This document shows, piece by piece, positions 47,532-56,690 of a stretch of 64,000 bases of DNA. A model generated the notes under the pieces. The model was not told the origin of the DNA, ran no database searches, and saw nothing but the letters and a program-made list of their open reading frames with translations. The DNA is from Myxococcota bacterium (lineage in GTDB: Bacteria > Myxococcota_A > UBA9160 > UBA4427). The DNA is taken from NCBI GenBank assembly GCA_046583195.1, contig JAYGCV010000128.1, positions 10,113 to 74,112 on the forward strand, written 5' to 3'. Numbering within the stretch: position 1 is the stretch's first letter; the number at the start of each line of letters is the position of its first letter. The translations under genes were made by a program, and so were the position numbers.

Positions 47532-48901
47532 GCGTGGCGCTCCATCCAGGCATCGAAGCCATCGAAGCCGACGGCAGACTGGCGAGCCGCGATGCGCTCG
47601 AGTAGCGCGCTGCGCTCGGCGTCGCTGGCTCCCGCGACGCCGCTGGCCGCCTGGGCCACGCGTTCGGTGGCTTCTTCGTCGACGGCCCCGGCCAGGGCTT
47701 CTTCGCCCGCGTGCCCGTCGCCAAGCCCGAGGAATGCCTCGATGGCACCCTGTGAGACACGCGCAGCGTGTTTGCGCGAGGCCACGATGTTGCCCTTCCC
47801 GGTGACGACGTTTCCTACCGAGAAGACCGTCGGCCAGGCTTCGAGACGGCCGACATCCCAGTCGCTGAAGTCGAAGAGTTCGCCCTTCATGTCGATCCCC
47901 GGAATCGCCTCGGGGATGCTGCCGATCGACGAAATCACGCAGGCGCCCCGTCGCTCGAAGACCTCTTCGGTGGTGACGACGCGCCCGTTTTCGATCCGCG
48001 TGCGCCGCAAGCCAAGGCCCACGAGCCGGTCGCCTTCGATGATCGCGGTCTCGGGAGCGCAGAGCGGTTCGAGCGTGAAGCAGAACTTCGCCATCGCTTT
48101 CTCGAGGATCTTGCGGCGGCCCTTGCGGACCTTTGCCGCGCGCTCGGGAGTGGCGCCCTCGGGAATCTCGGAGAGGGGCATGTCCTCGACATCGCGGCGA
48201 TAGAGGATCGTGCAGCCTGCGAGTCCGAGGTCTTCGAAGACGAGGTCGTGGGTGGCGAGAATCTTCGGGATGCCCCTGGTTTCGAGTTCGCCGATCGAGG
48301 CCTCGAGCCCGCGTTCTTTGAGCCGTGCGCGGGTGGTTTCGAGCATCAACACCTTCGCGACGTCAATCGAGGCGAGCCCGCCTCCCACCACGAGCGCGCC
48401 GTCCGGGTAGGCGAAGCGAGGTCCGTCGTAGCCGGGCTCTTCTTCGTGGTTGAAGGCGATGATGAAGGGGTTCTGGTAGACGAGCCCGCGACCCGTGAAG
48501 GCGTCGATGCCGTCGATTGGCAGCGAGCGGTCGCGCCAGGCTCCGTTGGCCAGGACCACCGAGGTAAAGCCCCAGTCGTTCACCAACTCGGCGAAGTCGA
48601 CGTCGCGACCGACCTTCGTGTTCGGCACGAAGTGGACGCCCTCACGCCCGAGTTTCTCGCGAATGGTCGCGTATTCCTTCTTCCGAAGGTTCACATGCCA
48701 GCGTGGCAGGCCGTCTTCGATCTTGCCAAAGGGGCGGGGGTTCTGGTCGAAGACCGCCACCAGGGCACCGCGGTCGGCGAGTCGAGCCGCCACTTCCGCA
48801 CCCGCGGTGGCGCCGCCGATCACGGCGACGCAGGGAGTTTCTTTCGCGGGGATCGGTTCCGACATCGCGGGCATGGTGCCAACTTCGCCCGCGCGCGACA
48901 A
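47522..48901 (-). CDS. FAD/NAD(P)-binding oxidoreductase (ferredoxin-NADP reductase / glutamate-synthase small-subunit-like)
   Basis: Two dinucleotide-binding motifs (VAVIGGATAGAEVA, ALVVGGGLASIDVA) and a C-terminal GNVVTGKGNI. The start could be 48901, 48874 or 48865. Confidence 0.75.
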   Translation of the reverse strand: MSRAGEVGTMPAMSEPIPAKETPCVAVIGGATAGAEVAARLADRGALVAVFDQNPRPFGKIEDGLPRWHVNLRKKEYATIREKLGREGVHFVPNTKVGRDVDFAELVNDWGFTSVVLANGAWRDRSLPIDGIDAFTGRGLVYQNPFIIAFNHEEEPGYDGPRFAYPDGALVVGGGLASIDVAKVLMLETTRARLKERGLEASIGELETRGIPKILATHDLVFEDLGLAGCTILYRRDVEDMPLSEIPEGATPERAAKVRKGRRKILEKAMAKFCFTLEPLCAPETAIIEGDRLVGLGLRRTRIENGRVVTTEEVFERRGACVISSIGSIPEAIPGIDMKGELFDFSDWDVGRLEAWPTVFSVGNVVTGKGNIVASRKHAARVSQGAIEAFLGLGDGHAGEEALAGAVDEEATERVAQAASGVAGASDAERSALLERIAARQSAVGFDGFDAWMERHAPA

Positions 48902-48932
48902 TGCGCCGCGCGCTCGCCTAGACTGTCGGCGC

Positions 48933-49006
48933 GGGCCCTTAGCTCAGTTGGTGAGAGCAACCGGCTCATAACCGGACGGTCCCAGGTTCGAGTCCTGGAG
49001 GGCCCA
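48933..49006 (+). tRNA. tRNA with CAU anticodon (elongator Met or lysidine-modified Ile2; not initiator)
   Basis: The manual cloverleaf has acceptor GGGCCCT/AGGGCCC, D-arm GCTC-AGTTGGTGA-GAGC and an anticodon loop CTCATAA. The T-arm is CCAGG-TTCGAGT-CCTGG with discriminator A. The paired 1:72 and the absence of a GGG/CCC anticodon stem argue against fMet. CCA is not encoded. Confidence 0.85.
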
Positions 49007-49090
49007 CCGCGTCCTGCGCGCGTCGATCAGAATCCCAGGGCCGAAGGCCGCGCTGCGACCCGCCCCGAAAATTCGCCGCGCGCGGCAATC

Positions 49091-49808
49091 CTACTTGTTG
49101 TGGACCAGAATCCCGCTCTCGCCGACGTAGAAGCTTTGGGTGCCGTCGACTTCGATGTTGTAGACGAGACCCCTGCCGCGGGCGACGGATCCGCCGGGAG
49201 CTTTACCGAAGGCGGCGTTTGCCGCTCTGGCCGTGGCCGCCTATCCCGCATAGAACGTGGGCATGTCCACGCGCTGGCTGCGCACCACCTTTGAGAGATG
49301 TCCTTCGCGGGTGCGGAGTACGTCGCCTGCGACGATCTCGCCGGCCTCGGTAGCCGCGACCGGTCACCCAGAAGGGGTGGCTGTCGGTGGTGTGCAGGAC
49401 CTGTCCGGCCACTTCGATCTCGCGCAGCTGGTGGGCCGGGTGCTCGTAGACCTTCGTCACCTTCGCCAGCACGCTCTGGCCGGTGTTCGGGTCGAAGGAC
49501 CAGACCTTCTCGCCGACCGCAATGTTCTCGATCGGGCGGGGTCCGGTCTCGGTGGCCACCGCGGTGTCCCCGCGGAAGCAGCCGGAATAGAAGCGGTCTC
49601 GCCCACTGCAGGTAACCGCACCCCTGCCAAAGACGGCTTCGAAAACCGTGGTTTCTTCGTCGCTGAGTCCAAGTGATTCGGCGAGATCGCTGCCGCAGCG
49701 CGCCTTCCAGCTGACGCGCCCTCCCTGCAGGTCCCCGCCGCGCTCGTTGGCGCGTGCCGTCCAACTGGCACTACAGGATTCCACGGTGACCTCGCTGACC
49801 GAGGCCAC
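49091..49808 (-). pseudogene. decayed Hint / bacterial intein-like (BIL) domain gene (one frameshift, one in-frame TAG)
   Basis: ORF 49203..49808 carries Hint blocks A/B (CFRGDTAVATETG..., TTDSHPFWV). After about 49361 the sense continues in another frame (VAATEAGEIVAGDVLRTREG...), passes a TAG at 49241-49243, and ends GLVYNIEVDGTQSFYVGESGILVHNK-stop at 49091-49093. Confidence 0.7.
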
Positions 49809-49859
49809 CCGGCCGCTGCGTGCGGGGACCCGCTAGCTTCGCGCTGCGAGGAGGGAGCC

Positions 49860-50291
49860 GTGCCCGAAATCGAAACGAGCGTTGGCGGCGCCTGTTATTG
49901 CGGGGCGGTCGGCTTCGAGGTCCGTCTGCCCACGCTCTGGTGCGGCCACTGCCACTGCAGCATGTGTCGTCGCAGCCATGGGGCCGGCTTCGTGACCTGG
50001 TTCGCGGTCCCGCGCGAGCGCTTTTTGCTCAGCGCGGGCGAAGAGAATTTGGTTCGCTTCGCTTCGTCGGATCACGGCACCCGCTCCTTCTGCGGCCGCT
50101 GCGGCAGCACCCTCTTCTGCGAATCGTCAAAGCACCCCGAGCAGGTCGACATCGTGCTCGCCAACATGCAGGCTGCGATCGACCGCGCGCCCCAGGCCCA
50201 CATCTATTGGAGCGATCGCGCCGACTGGATCAGCGCCGACGACGGCCTTCCAAAACTGGGCGGCGAAACCGGCCTCGAACCGCTTGCCTAG
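49860..50291 (+). CDS. GFA-family (glutathione-dependent formaldehyde-activating / CENP-V-like) zinc protein
   Basis: Cys pattern GACYCGAV...CHCSMCRRSHGAGF...FCGRCGSTLF. Confidence 0.8.
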   Translation: MPEIETSVGGACYCGAVGFEVRLPTLWCGHCHCSMCRRSHGAGFVTWFAVPRERFLLSAGEENLVRFASSDHGTRSFCGRCGSTLFCESSKHPEQVDIVLANMQAAIDRAPQAHIYWSDRADWISADDGLPKLGGETGLEPLA

Positions 50292-50368
50292 GCATCCGCC
50301 GCCCGTGCGCTGTTCGGCCGAACGGGCGGGGCAGTCGCTGCAGCCGGTCGCTGGGAGGATCCACTTCG

Positions 50369-50770
50369 ATGCAACCCCGACTCAGTCTGCTGACCCTCGG
50401 TGTCGCCGATCTCGACCGCGCCACCGACTTCTACGCCGACGTTCTCGGTCTGCCGAGGCTGCCGTCGCCGCCATCGATCGTCTTTTTCGAACTCGGAAAG
50501 ACGTGGCTGGCCCTCTACCCGCGCGAAGCGCTTGCCGCGGATGCCGGTGTCGAAGCCGACCCAGCGCCGCGCTTCCCGGGCTTTTGCCTGGCGCACAACG
50601 TGGCCTCGGAAGCCGAAGTCGATGCGCTCGTTGCCGAAGTCGAGGCCGGGGGCGGCCGTATCGTGAAGCCCCCCCAGCACGCCGATTGGGGTGGCTACTC
50701 GGGGTATTTCGCTGACCCGGACGGCTTCCTGTGGGAGGTCGCGTGGAACCCCAATTTTCCGCACGTCTAA
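50369..50770 (+). CDS. VOC-family (glyoxalase/bleomycin-resistance fold) protein
   Basis: MQPRLSLLTLGVADLDRATDFYADVLGL ... GYFADPDGFLWEVAWNP. ATG at 50369 within the longer ORF-track frame. Confidence 0.8.
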   Translation: MQPRLSLLTLGVADLDRATDFYADVLGLPRLPSPPSIVFFELGKTWLALYPREALAADAGVEADPAPRFPGFCLAHNVASEAEVDALVAEVEAGGGRIVKPPQHADWGGYSGYFADPDGFLWEVAWNPNFPHV

Positions 50771-51024
50771 AGATCGTATAGACTCGAAACTGCGCGGAAG
50801 GGAACGAGGCATGGCCGAAGTGTCGGCGGGAGAGCAGATCGACCTGGTTTCGATCCCGAGCCCACACTGGCTCTGGATCGGCGTCGGCACCCTCGTCGGC
50901 GCGGTCGCTCTCACGATTCTCCCGGAGAGGGTCTGGGGGACCTACGTCGGCGGAAGGGATCCGGGCGCGGGAGCGGGCGGGTGCTGAGCCCGAGCCCCCG
51001 GCGGTACCGGGTCCGACGTCGCCG

Positions 51025-52230
51025 ATGAGTGTCGACCTCCGCACGCGAGTCGATTCGGAGCAGGCACCGGTAGAGGCGGCGACCTTCTTCCGAGAGACCC
51101 TGCCCGCCCTCTTCGACGCACACCAGGCCTTGATCGCCCCCGGTGCCAGCAAACTCCTCCTCGAAGATTTCTGCATCGAGACCGAGGGCGAGTCCTTCAG
51201 CCTGCGCTGGCGTGACGCCCGGGTCGAGGTGTTGGAGGGAAACCGGGGCAGCGTCCACGTGCGACTCACGCGCGAACAATTAAGCGACCTGGCGAACGAC
51301 CAGAGCACGCCGGTGGCCTGGATGAGCACCCGCACCCTCGACATGCCCGAGGGAAACCTCGCGGATTTCCTGAACTGGTGGCTCGTACTGCGCGCCGCCC
51401 TTGACGAGCGACGCATCCATGCACCGGGCGACGTTCGCTTCGCGGGCGAGACGAGGCGCAGCTTCACGCCCGAAGATTCGGACGAGGTCATGCGCGCCTT
51501 TCTCGAGGACTGCGGCTACCTGCATATCCGCGGGCTGTTTACGAAAGAGGAGATGGCGGCGGTCGAAGCCGACTACGCCGTGGCGGAGCCGCACTACGAG
51601 AAGGGCGATCCCCGCGCGTGGTTCGCGACGACGAAGGACGGCACCGAGCACCTGGTGCGGATGGAGGGCTTCGACCGCTTCAGCGAGACCACCGCATCGC
51701 TGATCGACGAGGATCGGTTCCAGCGGATCGCGGGCATCCCCGGAATCGGTCACGAGATGGTTCGAAAACCCGGTACCCGGGTGGGAGCCCTGTCGAAGCC
51801 GATCGGCGTGGTGAAGGGGATCTCCGACGTCCCCTGGCACAAGGACTGCAGCCTCGGTCGTCACTCCTACGAGTGCTGCGGGATCACCGTCGGGATCTCG
51901 GTCACCGGTGCCGACGCGCGATCGGGCCAGCTGCGGGTCGTTCCGGGTACTCACCGTGCGCTGGTCTGGCCCGCGCCGACCACCCAGCCGGGCCTCGACC
52001 TCGAGCCCGTCGCTCTCCCCACCAAAACCGGCGACGTGACTGTGCACCTCTCCTGCACCCAGCACATGAGCCAACCCCCGGTCGAGCGCGGCCGAAAGGT
52101 TCTTTACACCGGCTTCGGCCAGCGGCCCGTCGATCGCGAGGCCGCCGATCGGAACCGCCAGCGATTGAACCGCGTGCGCGCGAAGACCCACACCAGCATC
52201 TCGCAGGAGCCCGGCTACCTCGGCGATTGA
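51025..52230 (+). CDS. phytanoyl-CoA dioxygenase (PhyH)-like Fe(II)/2OG oxygenase family protein with extra N-terminal domain
   Basis: The C-terminal half has a PhyH-like outline (GYLHIRGLF, VPWHKDCS with an HxD-type motif, RVVPGTHR, VTVHLSCTQH). About 150 aa at the N-terminus belong to no family I recognise. The family call is tentative. Confidence 0.6.
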   Translation: MSVDLRTRVDSEQAPVEAATFFRETLPALFDAHQALIAPGASKLLLEDFCIETEGESFSLRWRDARVEVLEGNRGSVHVRLTREQLSDLANDQSTPVAWMSTRTLDMPEGNLADFLNWWLVLRAALDERRIHAPGDVRFAGETRRSFTPEDSDEVMRAFLEDCGYLHIRGLFTKEEMAAVEADYAVAEPHYEKGDPRAWFATTKDGTEHLVRMEGFDRFSETTASLIDEDRFQRIAGIPGIGHEMVRKPGTRVGALSKPIGVVKGISDVPWHKDCSLGRHSYECCGITVGISVTGADARSGQLRVVPGTHRALVWPAPTTQPGLDLEPVALPTKTGDVTVHLSCTQHMSQPPVERGRKVLYTGFGQRPVDREAADRNRQRLNRVRAKTHTSISQEPGYLGD

Positions 52231-52251
52231 GGCCGACGCGCCCAGGCGTTC

Positions 52252-53133
52252 TCAATCCGTGGGCAGGGTCCCCGCGAGCGCTTCACGCCCGTGGATGGCT
52301 TCGGCGAACTGCAAGAAGGAGGGGCCGCGGCGCAGGTGGTGGCCGCCGTCGACGTCGATGGCGGTTCCGGTGATCCAGCGCGCTTCGGGCCCGAGCAGGA
52401 AACGGCAGAGCGCCGCGACGTCGCGTCCCTCGCCCACGTCGCCAAGCGGGGTGTTCTCGATGTAGCTCCGATAGACGTCGCTGTCGCGCGGGATGCCCTC
52501 CATCAACTCGGTGGCGATGAAGCCCGGGCGCACCGCGTTGAAGCGGATCTTCGCGGGTCCATATTCGTCGGCAGCGTTGCGCATCATTTCTTCGATGCCC
52601 GCCTTGCCGACGGTGTAAGCGCCGAAATAGGGATGGGTAACGTGCGCCGCGATCGAGGACATCCCCACGAAGCTGCCGCCGCCCGCCGCGATCATCCGCG
52701 GCAGCGTGTGCTTCACGCAGAGCATCGTGCCGAGCACGTTCAGGTGGAGCACGCGCAGGAATTCGTCCTTCTCCTGCAGGGCGTAGGGAGCCATGGCGCC
52801 GCCGCCCCCGGCATTGGCGATGCAGCCGTCGAGTTGGCCGGTAACTTCGGCCGCGCGTTTGACCGCAGCCTCGACCGAAGCCTCGTCGGTGACGTCGGCC
52901 TCGATGCTGTGGATCGAACCGCCGTGCTCCGGGGCAATGCGCGCCACCGCGTCGGCGAGCCGCTCCGGGTTGCGGCCGCAGATGGTGACCGCGGCGCCGT
53001 CGGTCGCCAGCGCGGCGGCACAGGCGCGGCCGATACCACTGCCGCCGCCCGTCACGAGGTAGGCGCGTCCTTCGAGTCCACCGGAACTGCTGGTTAAGGG
53101 TTCGATGCCCTCGGGGGCGTGGGGCGTGGACAT
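52252..53133 (-). CDS. SDR-family oxidoreductase
   Basis: Motifs TGGGSGIGRA, NAGGGG, and the catalytic YxxxK (YFGAYTVGKAG). Confidence 0.88.
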   Translation of the reverse strand: MSTPHAPEGIEPLTSSSGGLEGRAYLVTGGGSGIGRACAAALATDGAAVTICGRNPERLADAVARIAPEHGGSIHSIEADVTDEASVEAAVKRAAEVTGQLDGCIANAGGGGAMAPYALQEKDEFLRVLHLNVLGTMLCVKHTLPRMIAAGGGSFVGMSSIAAHVTHPYFGAYTVGKAGIEEMMRNAADEYGPAKIRFNAVRPGFIATELMEGIPRDSDVYRSYIENTPLGDVGEGRDVAALCRFLLGPEARWITGTAIDVDGGHHLRRGPSFLQFAEAIHGREALAGTLPTD

Positions 53134-53202
53134 GGTTTCTCCTCCTGGCCAGCGCGATCGGCTCGGCGAAACCTACCGCACGCCGCAGCGGAACGGGCCG
53201 GG

Positions 53203-53330
53203 CCGAAAACGGGGACGCGCGCGGGTACATCGTTGCCCTGTTGCCTCTTCGGCAGGCGGTCGGTCGTCTACTTTCCGGGGCCACGGCCACGGCGGTGGAC
53301 CGCGAGAAGTAGACAACGTCTCCGCTTCGC
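53203..53330. repeat. intergenic palindromic element, degenerate member of the CGGGGACG-core family (after the pcm 3' end)
   Basis: CCGAAAACGGGGACG (53203-53217) matches 13442-13457 apart from one fewer A. The reverse complement of 53301-53330 (gcgaagcggagacgttgtctacttctcgcg) matches the 47412 arm at about 25 of 30 positions. A partner arm gtcgtctactt lies at 53264-53274. Confidence 0.6.
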
Positions 53331-53332
53331 GG

Positions 53333-54073
53333 TCAGTCGCGCTCGGCCTCGCCGACCATCGGAACGAAGCGGACCGGCAGCAGCGATTCGAAGTGGAGCC
53401 CCTGTGCGTCGCGCGTGACGAGGACCAGCTCCTGGAGGCCGACGCCGACGGGCGCGACCAGGCGTCCGCCGACCGCGAGTTGCTCGAGTAGAGGCTCCGG
53501 GATGTCGTCGGGGGCCGCGGTCAGCAAAATGGCGTCGAAGGGGGCGTGTTCCGGCCAGCCCCCATAGCCGTCGCCGCTCCGCACCTCGACGTTCGCGATT
53601 CCCTTCGCTTCGAGGAGTGCCCGGCTGCGCTGCGCCAGGGCCTCGACGATTTCGATCGAGTAGACGCGCGCGGCAAGTCGCCCGAGGATGGCCGCCTGGT
53701 AGCCGGATCCAGTGCCGATCTCGAGCACCTTCTCACTGCCATCGAGTTCGAGTTGCTCGGTCATGAAAGCGACGATGTAGGGCTGCGAGATCGTCTGGCC
53801 GTAGCCAATGGGAAGGGGTGAATCACGGTGGGCGCGGTCGCGCACCTCGGCGGGGACGAAGTCGGCCCGCGGGATCTCGCGCATCGCTTGCAACACGCGG
53901 GGGTCGCGGATGCCGCGCGCCTCGATCTGCGAATGCACCATGAACTCGCGCTCCTGTTGCTCGAGTGGAGGGGCAGGAGGCGGGTCGGTCTCGACCCGCG
54001 GGCTCGCCTCGCAGCCCACCAGCACCGCGAGAGCCGAGAGCAGCGGAAGCACGCCTGCGAAGGATTGGGACAC
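53333..54073 (-). CDS. pcm: protein-L-isoaspartate O-methyltransferase with predicted lipoprotein signal
   Basis: Pcm core (GYGQTISQPYIVAFM, VLEIGTGSGYQAA). The N-terminus (V)SQSFAGVLPLLSALAVLVGC has lipobox LVGC. The GTG start at 54073 is provisional; the ORF track starts at 54205. Confidence 0.85.
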   Translation of the reverse strand: MSQSFAGVLPLLSALAVLVGCEASPRVETDPPPAPPLEQQEREFMVHSQIEARGIRDPRVLQAMREIPRADFVPAEVRDRAHRDSPLPIGYGQTISQPYIVAFMTEQLELDGSEKVLEIGTGSGYQAAILGRLAARVYSIEIVEALAQRSRALLEAKGIANVEVRSGDGYGGWPEHAPFDAILLTAAPDDIPEPLLEQLAVGGRLVAPVGVGLQELVLVTRDAQGLHFESLLPVRFVPMVGEAERD

Positions 54074-54191
54074 TCGATACCTCGGGCCTCTCAGTGTACG
54101 TCCGCCGGGATCGGTGAAATGGGCCCTTTTGCTATGCTCCAAGATAGTCGGTCGCGTGGGCGCGGCGACCTCCACCAGGCGGCGATGGACG

Positions 54192-55232
54192 ATGCGAAAA
54201 GACAAGGACCGCTACTGGGATTGCCTGGACCAGGCGATGGAAGCTTCGCACGGGGGCCGCACCGACGAGGCCCTCGCCTGGCTCGACGAGGCCCTGAAGG
54301 CCCAGCCGGGCGGTGCCGAGGCCCACAACGGCCGCGGCGAGATCCTGTGGGACGAGGCGCGGGTGGACGAGGCGCTCGCTGAGTTCGAGCGGGCCATCGA
54401 CACCGACCGCAAGTTCACGGCCGCCCACATGAACCGTGCCGAACTCCTGATCGAGGAGCTGGGCGAGTTCGAGGCCGCGCTCCGCCAGTGCGACACCCTG
54501 CTCGCCGGGAATCCGGAAATGCCCCGGGCGGATCGGCTGCTCCAGGCCGAGATCCACTACCTGAAGTCGAAGGCACTCTTTTACCTCGACGATCTCGAGG
54601 GGGCGGCCTTCCTGGTGCGCCGCGCGAGCCAGGCCGTGGCCGACCAGCCGGTGTACTTCGCCTTCGAGGGACAGATCCTCTTCGAACTCGGCCAGAGCGA
54701 CGACGCGCGCCGCGTTCTCGAACGCGCCGTGGCGATGGACCCCGACGCTCCCCACGCGCTTTATCACCTGGCGTTGGTCCTCGAACGCCTCGAGAGCGCC
54801 GAAGCCTCGGAGCCTCTCTTTGTCCGCGCCAACGCCCTCGATCCCGACCACTACCCGCTCCCGGCCGAAGTCGACACCGAGACCTTCGAGCAGGCAGTGC
54901 GCGAATCCCTCGACAACCTTCCGCGATCGATCCGCGAGTACATCGAACCCGTCGAGGTGATGGTCGAAGACTGGCCGTCGAATGAACTCGTCTCTTCCGA
55001 GAGGATCTCCCCGCAGATCCTGGGAATTTTCATTGGCGTACCGCGAACCGGAGCTTCTCTCGACGTACAGGTACACGATCTCGATCGCGTGATTCTTTTC
55101 AAGAAAAATCTCGAGAAGGTCTGTCGCAGCGTCGACGAATTGATCGACCAGATCGAGATCACCGTCCGTCACGAGATCGGGCACTATCTCGGTCTCGATG
55201 AAGACGACATGGAGCGGCTCGGTCTCGCGTAG
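54192..55232 (+). CDS. TPR-repeat protein with C-terminal minimal zincin (HExxH) metallopeptidase-like domain
   Basis: ATG at 54192 (MRKDKDRYW). TPR-like repeats (AEAHNGRGEILWDEARVDEALAEFERAIDTD...). The C-terminal VRHEIGHYLGLDEDDMERLG resembles the DUF1025/zincin-1 family. Confidence 0.75.
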   Translation: MRKDKDRYWDCLDQAMEASHGGRTDEALAWLDEALKAQPGGAEAHNGRGEILWDEARVDEALAEFERAIDTDRKFTAAHMNRAELLIEELGEFEAALRQCDTLLAGNPEMPRADRLLQAEIHYLKSKALFYLDDLEGAAFLVRRASQAVADQPVYFAFEGQILFELGQSDDARRVLERAVAMDPDAPHALYHLALVLERLESAEASEPLFVRANALDPDHYPLPAEVDTETFEQAVRESLDNLPRSIREYIEPVEVMVEDWPSNELVSSERISPQILGIFIGVPRTGASLDVQVHDLDRVILFKKNLEKVCRSVDELIDQIEITVRHEIGHYLGLDEDDMERLGLA

Positions 55233-55253
55233 CGCCGCCGCACGGGGTTTGCG

Positions 55254-56690
55254 ATGTCGGTGCTGATCGACCGTCTCAGCAGGATCGTCGGTGCACGCCA
55301 TTGTCTGGCGAGCGCCGAGGAACTCTTCGTCTACGAGTGCGACGGGTTGACCCTCGATCCGGTACGCCCGGTGGCGGTGGTCCTGCCGGTCGACGCCGCC
55401 GAGGTTTCCGGAGTGGTGCGGGTGTGTTCCGAACTCGGGCATCCGGTGGTTCCGCGCGGAGCGGGAACCGGGCTCTCCGGGGGCGCGCAACCGATCGAAG
55501 GCTCGGTCGTGGTGGAGTGCTCGCGGATGGACCGGATCCTCGAAATTCGCCCCGAAGATCGCGTCGCCGTGGTGCAGCCCGGGGTGATCAACGCCGAACT
55601 CTCGACCGCCGTCGCCGAACTCGGCCTCTTTTATGCCCCCGACCCGTCGAGCCAGCAGGCCTGCACCATCGGTGGCAACGTCGCCGAAAATTCGGGTGGC
55701 CCCCACACCCTCAAGTACGGCACGACGACCAACCATGTGCTCGCCCTCGAATTGGTGCAGAGCGATGGCGAACGCCTGCGGCTCGGTAGCCGCGCAGGAC
55801 GCTCCCGCGAGTTCGATCTGGTGGGCGTCGTGGTGGGAAGCGAGGGCACTCTCGGGATCGTGACCGAGATCAGTGTGCGGCTCTCCCCGATTCCGGAAGG
55901 CGTCGAGACGTTGCTCGCCATCTTCGACGACACGGTCTCGGCGTGCCGCGCCGTGGGGAGCATCATTCGCAGCGGCCTGATTCCCGCGGCCCTCGAGATC
56001 ATCGATCAGCGCACGATCAACGCGGTCGAGGACAGTGTCTACCGAGCCGGCCTGCCCCGTGACGCCGGAGCGGTGTTGATCGCAGAAGTCGACGGCGCGC
56101 CATGCTCGCTACCCGGAGAAGTGGAACGCATTGGAGAATGCGCGCGCGAAGCTGGTGCGAGGGAGTGTCGGGTGGCGCGCGACGAAGCCGAGCGCGCGCG
56201 CTTCTGGCGGGCGCGAAAGGGGGCCTTCGGCGCCATGGGCCGTCTTGCGCCCGACCTCTACGTCCACGACGCGGTCGTGCCCCGCGCGAGACTCCCGGAG
56301 GTCATCGAGAAGATCTGCGAGATCGGCGACCGCTACCAACTCACGCTCTCGAACGTCTTTCACGCCGGCGACGGAAACCTCCACCCGAACATCTCCTTCG
56401 ATCGACGCAATGCAGAGGAGGTCGAACGGGTGATCGCGGCGGGGCGCGAAATTCTCGAAACTTGCGTTGCGGCCGGTGGCGTCATCACCGGCGAACACGG
56501 CATCGGAGTCGAAAAGCGCGACTACATGAAGCTCGTATTCGAGGACGAGGACCTGCTGCCGATGCTCTATGTGCGCGACGCTTTCGACCCGGAGCGTGTC
56601 TTCAACCCGACCAAGATATTCCCAACGACCCGATTCTGTTTCGAATCGAACCCCCGGGCCCGGGGATACGACCGCGTTCCATTCAAATGA
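55254..56690 (+). CDS. glcD: glycolate oxidase subunit GlcD (FAD-linked oxidase)
   Basis: 478 aa. FAD-binding PCMH domain (PRGAGTGLSGGAQP) and C-terminal GEHGIGVEKR. Followed by glcE and glcF. Confidence 0.9.
   Translation: MSVLIDRLSRIVGARHCLASAEELFVYECDGLTLDPVRPVAVVLPVDAAEVSGVVRVCSELGHPVVPRGAGTGLSGGAQPIEGSVVVECSRMDRILEIRPEDRVAVVQPGVINAELSTAVAELGLFYAPDPSSQQACTIGGNVAENSGGPHTLKYGTTTNHVLALELVQSDGERLRLGSRAGRSREFDLVGVVVGSEGTLGIVTEISVRLSPIPEGVETLLAIFDDTVSACRAVGSIIRSGLIPAALEIIDQRTINAVEDSVYRAGLPRDAGAVLIAEVDGAPCSLPGEVERIGECAREAGARECRVARDEAERARFWRARKGAFGAMGRLAPDLYVHDAVVPRARLPEVIEKICEIGDRYQLTLSNVFHAGDGNLHPNISFDRRNAEEVERVIAAGREILETCVAAGGVITGEHGIGVEKRDYMKLVFEDEDLLPMLYVRDAFDPERVFNPTKIFPTTRFCFESNPRARGYDRVPFK

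Follow-up and report, generated by a model that had tools for sequence, protein, structure and literature searches.

A Hint-domain gene beside tRNA-Met in a marine Myxococcota species is very probably a decaying pseudogene of a small secreted protein

We analysed a 64,000-nucleotide stretch of contig JAYGCV010000128.1 from a Myxococcota bacterium (the window, taken at its full length), in which positions 49091 to 49808 carry the remnant of a Hint-domain gene. The position of this gene is fixed in a marine Myxococcota species: it lies between a GFA-family gene and tRNA-Met, beside rpsU-dnaG-rpoD. A first-pass annotation, made from the letters of the DNA alone, had described the element as a decayed Hint or bacterial-intein-like (BIL) cassette, probably the scar of a toxin or mobile element that had integrated next to the tRNA and had lost its cargo and most of its carrier. 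Our analysis indicates that it is very probably the decaying pseudogene of a small secreted protein with a terminal BIL domain, broken by independent lesions in different strains. The decay itself had been recognised correctly and consists, in the window, of a 5′ truncation, a frameshift, an in-frame TAG and a 12-bp deletion (Table 1).

The open reading frame (ORF) of the remnant opens at GTG 49808 according to the ORF list and the translation, and its frame reads MASVSEVTVESCSASW…SGCFRGDTAVATETG…HTTDSHPFWVTGRG. From about 49351 the homologous reading runs in another frame, as …TEAGEIVAGDVLRTREGHLSKVVRSQRVDMPTFYAG, a stop, AATARA…GLVYNIEVDGTQSFYVGESGILVHNK and a final stop. All three hallmark blocks of a Hint domain named at first pass were located on the minus strand. 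The Cys1 codon occupies 49578-49580 (CFRGDTAVATETG) and begins the block-A motif CFRGDT, with Cys1 invariant in the family; the TxxH block, TTDSHPFWV, has its Thr at 49386-49388 and its His at 49377-49379, two residues that are nearly invariant in the family; and the C-terminal block GLVYNIEVDGTQSFYVGESGILVHN ends with His at 49100-49102, Asn at 49097-49099, Lys at 49094-49096 and the stop codon at 49091-49093. Translation confirmed that one residue alone follows the terminal HN: the +1 residue after VHN is Lys, then comes the stop, and there is no Cys, Ser or Thr. At the position of the block-F His of most intact family members, all alleles of the species carry Gln.

Comparison with near-identical alleles placed the frameshift at a 2-bp deletion after 49351. 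The remnant does lie in two frames, as had been proposed, with the shift about 10 nt away from the predicted 49361-49365. The TAG reported at 49241-49243 is present, every other allele has TAC there, and the residue at this site is Tyr across the family (FYAGY motif). A 12-bp deletion near 49180 is a further lesion, beyond the two noted earlier. At the front of the gene, a 5′ deletion took the intergenic region, the ribosome-binding site, the start codon, the signal peptide and about 118 positions of the N-domain, the domain that precedes Hint in intact relatives. GTG 49808 is a fortuitous ORF start, and no promoter-like site was found upstream of the remnant. The copy in the window does nothing now: start signals and leader are absent, the N-domain is cut short, and two interruptions break the Hint domain. 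Programmed frameshifting and stop read-through were considered and rejected, because the sister alleles are plainly in frame and other alleles carry unrelated lesions.

Table 1. Coordinates of the Hint-domain remnant, its lesions and the adjoining genes in the window.
Feature	Position	Strand	Basis
Hint pseudogene (window feature)	49808 to 49091	minus
Hint (type-A BIL-like) remnant, Cys1 to terminal His-Asn-Lys, in two frames	49094..49580	-	translation, Pfam, TIGR, 2LWY, family alignment
N-domain remnant: final ~70 of the profile's ~195 positions; retains three of four conserved Cys	49581..49803	-	hmmsearch 45.4 bits; alignments
5′ deletion junction, common to L090	49803..49808	-	identity with alleles A/B/C ends at 49803-49807
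2-bp deletion, GGCTGGACC to GGCTACC, frameshift	49350..49353	-	alignments with L090, L001-4, L091-98
In-frame TAG; TAC (Tyr) in all other alleles	49241..49243	-	allele and family alignments
12-bp in-frame deletion (TCGCCGATCCCT, between TCGCC direct repeats)	49179..49182	-	allele alignments
Native stop codon right after HN-K, as throughout the clade	49091..49093	-	translation, family alignment
tRNA-Met (CAT); only a neighbour, in convergent orientation, 82 nt from the stop of the remnant	48933..49008	+	ARAGORN; Rfam tRNA 69.8 bits
GFA-family gene, divergent neighbour, 5′ leader abuts the deletion junction	49860..50291	+	ORF list; Pfam GFA on orthologues; exact match NCBI MFP6564843.1 (Myxococcota metagenome-assembled genome)

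To identify the domain, we scored a stitched protein of 239/240 residues in which both frames were joined. The Hint-family search suggested as a check at first pass was positive: PT-HINT (PF07591) was the best Pfam model (E = 9e-12, 45.9 bits against a cut-off of 27.7), and the TIGR intein models TIGR01445 and TIGR01443 (N- and C-terminal) both scored above cut-off. The Pfam models Hint_2, Intein_splicing and Hint all fell below their own cut-offs (24.0 bits against 29.7 for Hint, PF01079; 25.6 against 35.8 for Intein_splicing). A phmmer search of PDB sequences returned a sole match, 2LWY, the BIL domain of Clostridium thermocellum (E = 1.8e-15). An AlphaFold model of the intact relative P0007, built from a 16-sequence alignment with a mean predicted local distance difference test (pLDDT) score of 82.9, showed a Hint fold at residues ~189-344, and its best PDB match in Foldseek was again 2LWY (E = 2.9e-11, target-normalised TM-score 0.90, 31% identity). 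Tetrahymena BUBL BIL2, many mini-inteins and the Hedgehog autoprocessing domain 1AT0 followed among the PDB fold matches. Type-A BIL domains were reportedly described by Amitai et al. in 2003 and Dassa et al. in 2004, and the 2LWY structure is said to be the work of Aranko et al. in 2013.

The features by which a type-A BIL is recognised in sequence, namely Cys1, TxxH, a terminal HN and no +1 nucleophile, are all present in the window. Judged by its sequence, the domain is a type-A BIL-like Hint domain. The earlier call of a BIL-type Hint without a host extein agrees with the Lys and stop at +1, with the family-specific N-domain upstream and with the 2LWY match. A true intein was rejected as a candidate, as host extein, +1 nucleophile and endonuclease are all absent.

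The nature of the parent gene emerged from its relatives. A homologue search of 5.8 billion proteins returned one near-identical cluster, P0001, at 90% identity, and nine further proteins at 38-44% identity, whose alignments span 97-100% of the query and take in the residues ahead of Cys1. The closest intact relatives are 316-396 aa long and all end in HN-K-stop. They share one layout, in which a hydrophobic leader is followed by an (E/D)RPDRP motif, by about 170 residues with four invariant Cys and by the Hint domain, whose consensus reads …G-CFRGDT…TTDxHPFWVEGKGW…FYAGY…VYNIEVxGTHxFFVG…VLVHNK-stop. The HN-K-stop ends are unlikely to be truncations of gene calling, to judge from stop codons read from the DNA in L010 and L011 and from intact ORF calls in L005 and L009. 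In a profile search of 1.84 billion cluster representatives, of which the best 150 matches were considered, about a dozen 50%-identity clusters had the full architecture including the N-domain, and in about 20 clusters the Hint domain ended three or fewer residues after HN. Some of these terminal-Hint clusters have other N-domains, and some have almost none, consisting of a leader, a short linker, Hint and Lys.

These relatives change the reading of both ends of the remnant. The first-pass annotation had counted about 76 residues ahead of Cys1, correctly, and had called them unrelated; they correspond to positions 119-187 of the 195-position N-domain profile (45.4 bits, hmmsearch) and include three conserved Cys. 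As they match the family's own N-domain, the missing part of the gene in the window is its front and not its back. Likewise, since every one of the nearest relatives is a small, complete protein with an HN-K-stop end, the single Lys after HN is the native C-terminus of the clade and not the stump of a lost toxin. The view that cargo and most of a carrier are missing could not be upheld: the close relatives are complete at HN-K-stop, and the gene had no C-terminal toxin to lose.

The N-domain itself resembled nothing in the collections that we searched. Modelled alone, it gave an antiparallel beta structure with two helices at high confidence (pLDDT 93.9, predicted TM-score 0.87). N-domain sequences (P0007, P0002, P0031 and others) had no Pfam match and no PDB sequence match even at E up to 10, and the modelled fold had no significant match in the PDB (best E = 0.15, TM below 0.25); PADLOC was negative as well. 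A literature search found no paper treating the HN-K-terminal clade. The parent family, rare and uncharacterised, presents a known domain type in a new architecture, joined to an N-domain of unassigned fold.

Some members of the wider family deviate from this layout. Among P0042, P0038, P0043 and P0049 are minimal proteins from other lineages that consist of a leader, a short linker, Hint and Lys; one relative in this set has Ser in place of Cys1 and an HHK end, and another is an N-domain protein with an internally deleted Hint domain. Such minimal and deviant relatives suggest either a function of Hint alone or frequent decay of the family elsewhere.

To follow the gene within the species, we defined allele classes from an alignment of the GFA-to-tRNA interval in a sample of about a dozen contigs. 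Allele W, found in the window and in L090, has a deletion whose ends lie just upstream of the GFA leader and in mid N-domain, and contains the specific segment GTGGAATCCTGTAGTGCCAGTTGG. L090 (assembly ERZ1643211), which is 99.56% identical to the window over 20.7 kb, keeps the reading frame through the rest of this allele (P0022, 235 aa); the window has, in addition, the 2-bp deletion, the change of TAC to TAG and the 12-bp deletion. Allele A (L001-4) keeps the intergenic region; a 49-nt deletion took AAGGAG and the ATG, there is an extra 9-bp deletion, and a leader-like segment is fused in frame to GDTAVATE, so that the N-domain and Cys1 are gone. Allele B (L091-94 and L098) keeps the ribosome-binding site, the ATG, the leader and about 35 further residues, followed by a deletion that reaches into Hint up to HQLREIEV, out of frame, and removes the N-domain and the first ~47 Hint residues; its specific segment is GGCATCGAGGTTTCGAGCGATTGCGACGTGATCAGCGA. 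Allele C (L095-97) is allele B with a GG insertion.

These deletions are mutually non-nested: W keeps sequence that is missing from A and B, A keeps Hint residues that are missing from B, and B keeps residues that are missing from A. The three alleles W, A and B therefore descend independently from a full-length gene. The 5′ segments of A, B and C appear to represent the original N-terminus of the same gene, an assignment made by inspection from the ribosome-binding site, the ATG, the hydrophobic leader and DFPRDD at the place where the family has RPDRP. An ORF in which both of the earlier reported lesions are repaired had been expected to mark a live minimal BIL protein. Such an ORF exists in L090, but because L090 shares the 5′ truncation, it is still unlikely to be functional.

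Two further observations concern small lesions in these alleles. At 49345-49360, different alleles carry three different small indels, all of them clustered no more than about 6 nt from the motif CGCGGCTGGACC (the window has -2, L098 has +1 G, and L095, at ~2990, L096 and L097 have +2 G); this suggests a local hot spot of mutation. A 12-nt deletion (TCGCCGATCCCT) is common to the window and L098, which otherwise belong to different deletion lineages, W and B; either recurrent slippage or recombination between alleles would account for it.

The pattern of change among the alleles is that of a gene in decay. The remnant has accumulated six non-synonymous unique substitutions, one of them nonsense, against three synonymous ones, a ratio that alone is not statistically significant, together with five small indel events in 708 nt or less. 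Control genes on the same contigs had no indels, with non-synonymous to synonymous counts of 4:10 in Pyr_redox_2 and 2:2 in GFA. Between the window and L090, three indels were found over 20.7 kb, two of them inside the 718-nt remnant. The only one outside it is a single base at 50994, between Glyoxalase and PhyH. Taken together, the marks of a pseudogene are present: a 5′ truncation, a 2-bp deletion and a TAG relative to intact homologues, and independent lesions with an indel excess in the orthologues.

No intact allele of the species was found in the protein database or in two scans of metagenome DNA. In metagenome contigs of the Joint Genome Institute (JGI), a collection that evidently holds a subset of the contigs analysed here, an exact 24-mer from the N-domain remnant of the window matched nothing, and a 24-mer from the signal-peptide region recovered two more alleles, both broken.

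On this basis we propose the following course of events. The parent gene, as reconstructed, encoded a Sec-secreted protein with a signal peptide, a beta-rich N-domain of about 170 aa with four conserved Cys and a C-terminal type-A BIL Hint domain. The Hint domain of the intact proteins would most likely, in analogy to type-A BILs and Hedgehog, carry out an N-S acyl shift at the Gly-Cys junction, turning the C-terminus of the N-domain into a thioester; water or another nucleophile could then resolve this thioester and free the N-domain from Hint. The conserved His-Asn could cyclise, by the same analogy, and release the terminal Lys. The strict conservation of the HN-K end suggests that Asn cyclisation, or a structural role of block G, is still needed. 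In this genome, the 5′ deletion came first, followed by the 2-bp frameshift, the nonsense codon and the 12-bp deletion.

Several points weigh against this account. Autocleavage by the HN-K-stop clade is a proposal by analogy, and the signal peptides and leaders of the family were judged by eye. The full-length ancestor of this species is a reconstruction from its alleles, and the 5′ segments of A, B and C give no score with the N-domain profile, for which they are too short or too divergent. L090 keeps an open frame of 235 codons, and some residual function of W is therefore conceivable. In the window, the 2-bp deletion and the TAG come from one assembly and may be errors of that assembly; for the 5′ truncation, L090 provides independent confirmation.

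The series of deletions could also be read as adaptive. If an exposed N-domain were harmful, for example as a phage receptor or as a costly surface protein, selection would remove it and the Hint remnant would merely hitch-hike. The three independent large deletions do all remove an overlapping central part of the N-domain, and no intact allele appeared in the collections searched. However, the deletions also take Cys1 or the start signals, as expected of random loss, and small lesions are spread through the Hint part too; the sample amounts to about a dozen contigs, and two of the searches covered a subset of metagenomes. We regard selection of this kind as unlikely. A bolder proposal takes the intact relatives to be a bacterial Hedgehog-like family, in which the terminal BIL would activate a novel secreted N-domain as a thioester, to be joined to a lipid, the cell wall or an amine, or to be capped by the released Lys along the type-A BIL aminolysis route, with selection and not drift behind the recurrent loss of the N-domain. 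As a whole, this chain of steps is improbable in our judgement.

Distinctly improbable is the explanation closest to the first-pass annotation, according to which the remnant is the stump of a polymorphic toxin (Rhs/CdiA/MafB-type) or an orphan cassette that lost toxin and carrier, brought by a mobile element to tRNA-Met. Its appeal is plain: PT-HINT is the best Pfam model, the NCBI name of relatives is "polymorphic toxin-type HINT domain-containing protein", and the distant PT-HINT proteins P0011 and P0012 have HN-K followed by a tail. PT-HINT is defined as "always sandwiched" between a pre-toxin domain and a toxin (PMC3113570), an arrangement that the present proteins lack: the close relatives all stop at HN-K within 316-396 aa with neither carrier nor toxin, and the sequence ahead of Cys1 is the family's own N-domain. 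We also scanned GTDB species representatives, a set that does not include this species, confirmed 291 relatives and kept the best 80 loci. Two of these 80 PT-HINT loci, in Terriglobales and Binatia, have the HN-K end; the other 78 have tails of ~40-1100 residues, typically 90-140, in line with pre-toxin HINT modules, or run into a contig end. Toxin and immunity pairs, which had been suggested as something to look for in relatives, did not appear: no immunity-like small gene lies downstream here, where the tRNA follows, and no small same-strand downstream gene lies beside P0007 or P0008.

The idea of a cassette scar beside the tRNA fared no better. The tRNA is indeed the neighbour, at a measured distance of 82 nt rather than the reported 84. 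No integrase was found among the genes called within ~10 kb on either side in the orthologous loci L090 and L001, the 24-nt 3′ end of the tRNA occurs once in the 64 kb when 3 mismatches are allowed, and no convincing att-like bracketing repeats were found in 48800-56000. PADLOC returned no matches. GC content across the remnant is 0.665-0.68, the same as in the flanks. Intact family members elsewhere are not adjacent to tRNAs. One of them, P0009, does lie between transposase and integrase genes, which speaks for mobility, as does the varying gene content beside the 3′ end of tRNA-Met among relatives. In L103, whose Pyr_redox_2 is 65% identical, SDR stands directly beside tRNA-Met (L103:5790-6010); in L099 (L099:1-460) and L100, a relative at 72% identity, PhyH does, and this PhyH-flanked relative has no Glyoxalase, GFA or Hint gene. 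Given these differences, either this lineage gained the Hint gene and, separately, its neighbours, or the other lineages lost them. The gene may have been acquired at the tRNA flank long ago; there is no mark of a mobile element today. As an observation in its own right, the 3′ flank of tRNA-Met (window positions 48933-49090) is a hot spot at which gene content changes between more distant relatives.

That the gene is alive, with its frameshift and TAG being assembly errors or bypassed and its product a minimal cytoplasmic BIL protein like that of the 235-aa ORF of L090, is most improbable: the uninterrupted ORF of L090, at such high identity to the window, and the small "signal peptide + Hint + K" proteins found elsewhere (P0042, P0038) favour it, but even in L090 the upstream region, the signal peptide and ~118 N-domain positions, with one of the four invariant Cys among them, are gone, nothing like a promoter lies upstream, the other alleles of the species are all broken, each differently, the remnant has a concentration of indels, and the three lesions of the window are of three kinds, with the frameshift not at a homopolymer.

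The surroundings of the pseudogene are stable within the species. The order is SDR, PhyH, a 58-aa ORF, Glyoxalase, GFA, Hint, tRNA-Met, Pyr_redox_2, rpoD, dnaG, rpsU and his genes, and it is the same in all same-species contigs, which come from several marine metagenomes and are 94-99.6% identical to the window. The S21 and GFA proteins of the window match NCBI entries exactly and thereby trace it to an uncultured Myxococcota metagenome-assembled genome. The tRNA was the only non-coding RNA found with Rfam, and a tblastn search of the window with eight family members found no paralogue, only the remnant. In alleles A, B and C, the GFA-Hint intergenic region contains an AT-rich stretch of ~50 nt (GTAATTTACCTGATCTTAAATGGATATAAATATTTAGTTTTGGTGCAGAATAG; L001:3520-3575 and its equivalents in L091 and L095) in a genome of 67% GC; this stretch is deleted in the allele of the window. 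It is probably a divergent promoter region, and its loss may affect the expression of GFA too. Elsewhere, GC content dips to 0.58-0.60 at 54800-55400, against ~0.67 in the rest of the profiled stretch, in or near a TPR/Zincin_1 gene by the gene calls of L090.

The feature in the window is itself an ordinary dead gene, and its value lies mainly in a correction: a Hint domain that ends in HN and one residue is not necessarily a truncated toxin module. Behind it stands a rare parent clade, whose small secreted members set a type-A BIL domain into a Hedgehog-like layout. This clade is a tractable system for studying the role of terminal Hint domains in bacteria and the origin of Hog-type architectures. 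The locus also provides a natural series of independent inactivations of one gene in one uncultured marine species, a case of gene loss in progress.

Among known systems, the pretoxin HINT domains share the sequence type of the present Hint, as in the toxins of Paenibacillus and Amycolatopsis (30-38% identity). Unlike these, the window and its close relatives have no pre-toxin carrier, no C-terminal toxin and no immunity gene, and their N-domain has no Pfam match. With inteins, of which many structures were matched, the domain of the window shares the fold and the catalytic blocks A, B, F and G; it differs from them in having no conserved host protein, no +1 Cys, Ser or Thr and no homing endonuclease.

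Type-A BIL domains are defined by Cys1, a C-terminal His-Asn and the lack of a +1 nucleophile. In them an N-terminal thioester forms, Asn cyclisation brings about cleavage at the C-terminus, and the freed amino group can then attack the thioester (PMC4031507; PMC7765530). BIL domains are found in non-conserved secreted proteins (PMC7765530). The window and the family have the N-terminal Cys, TxxH, the C-terminal His-Asn and no +1 nucleophile. They differ in that described BILs lie inside larger proteins with a real C-terminal flank, whereas the "C-extein" of this family is a single Lys, and in that the copy in the window is dead.

In layout, the intact family resembles Hedgehog and other Hog proteins: it has a leader, a Cys-containing N-domain, a Gly-Cys-Phe junction and a C-terminal Hint. 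In the window, this layout is reduced to the junction and the final third of the N-domain. Unlike Hedgehog, the protein stops one residue past HN and has no sterol-recognition region, and PF01079 scores below its cut-off. Bacterial secreted proteins with a C-terminal Hint-like domain have come up before, reportedly also in work by Dassa and Pietrokovski. Those described by Bürglin in 2008 have conserved upstream cysteines and a Hog-like layout (PMC2362128). That group is described as divergent from BILs and lacks the HN end, whereas the clade described here is clearly BIL-A/PT-HINT-like and ends in HN-K.

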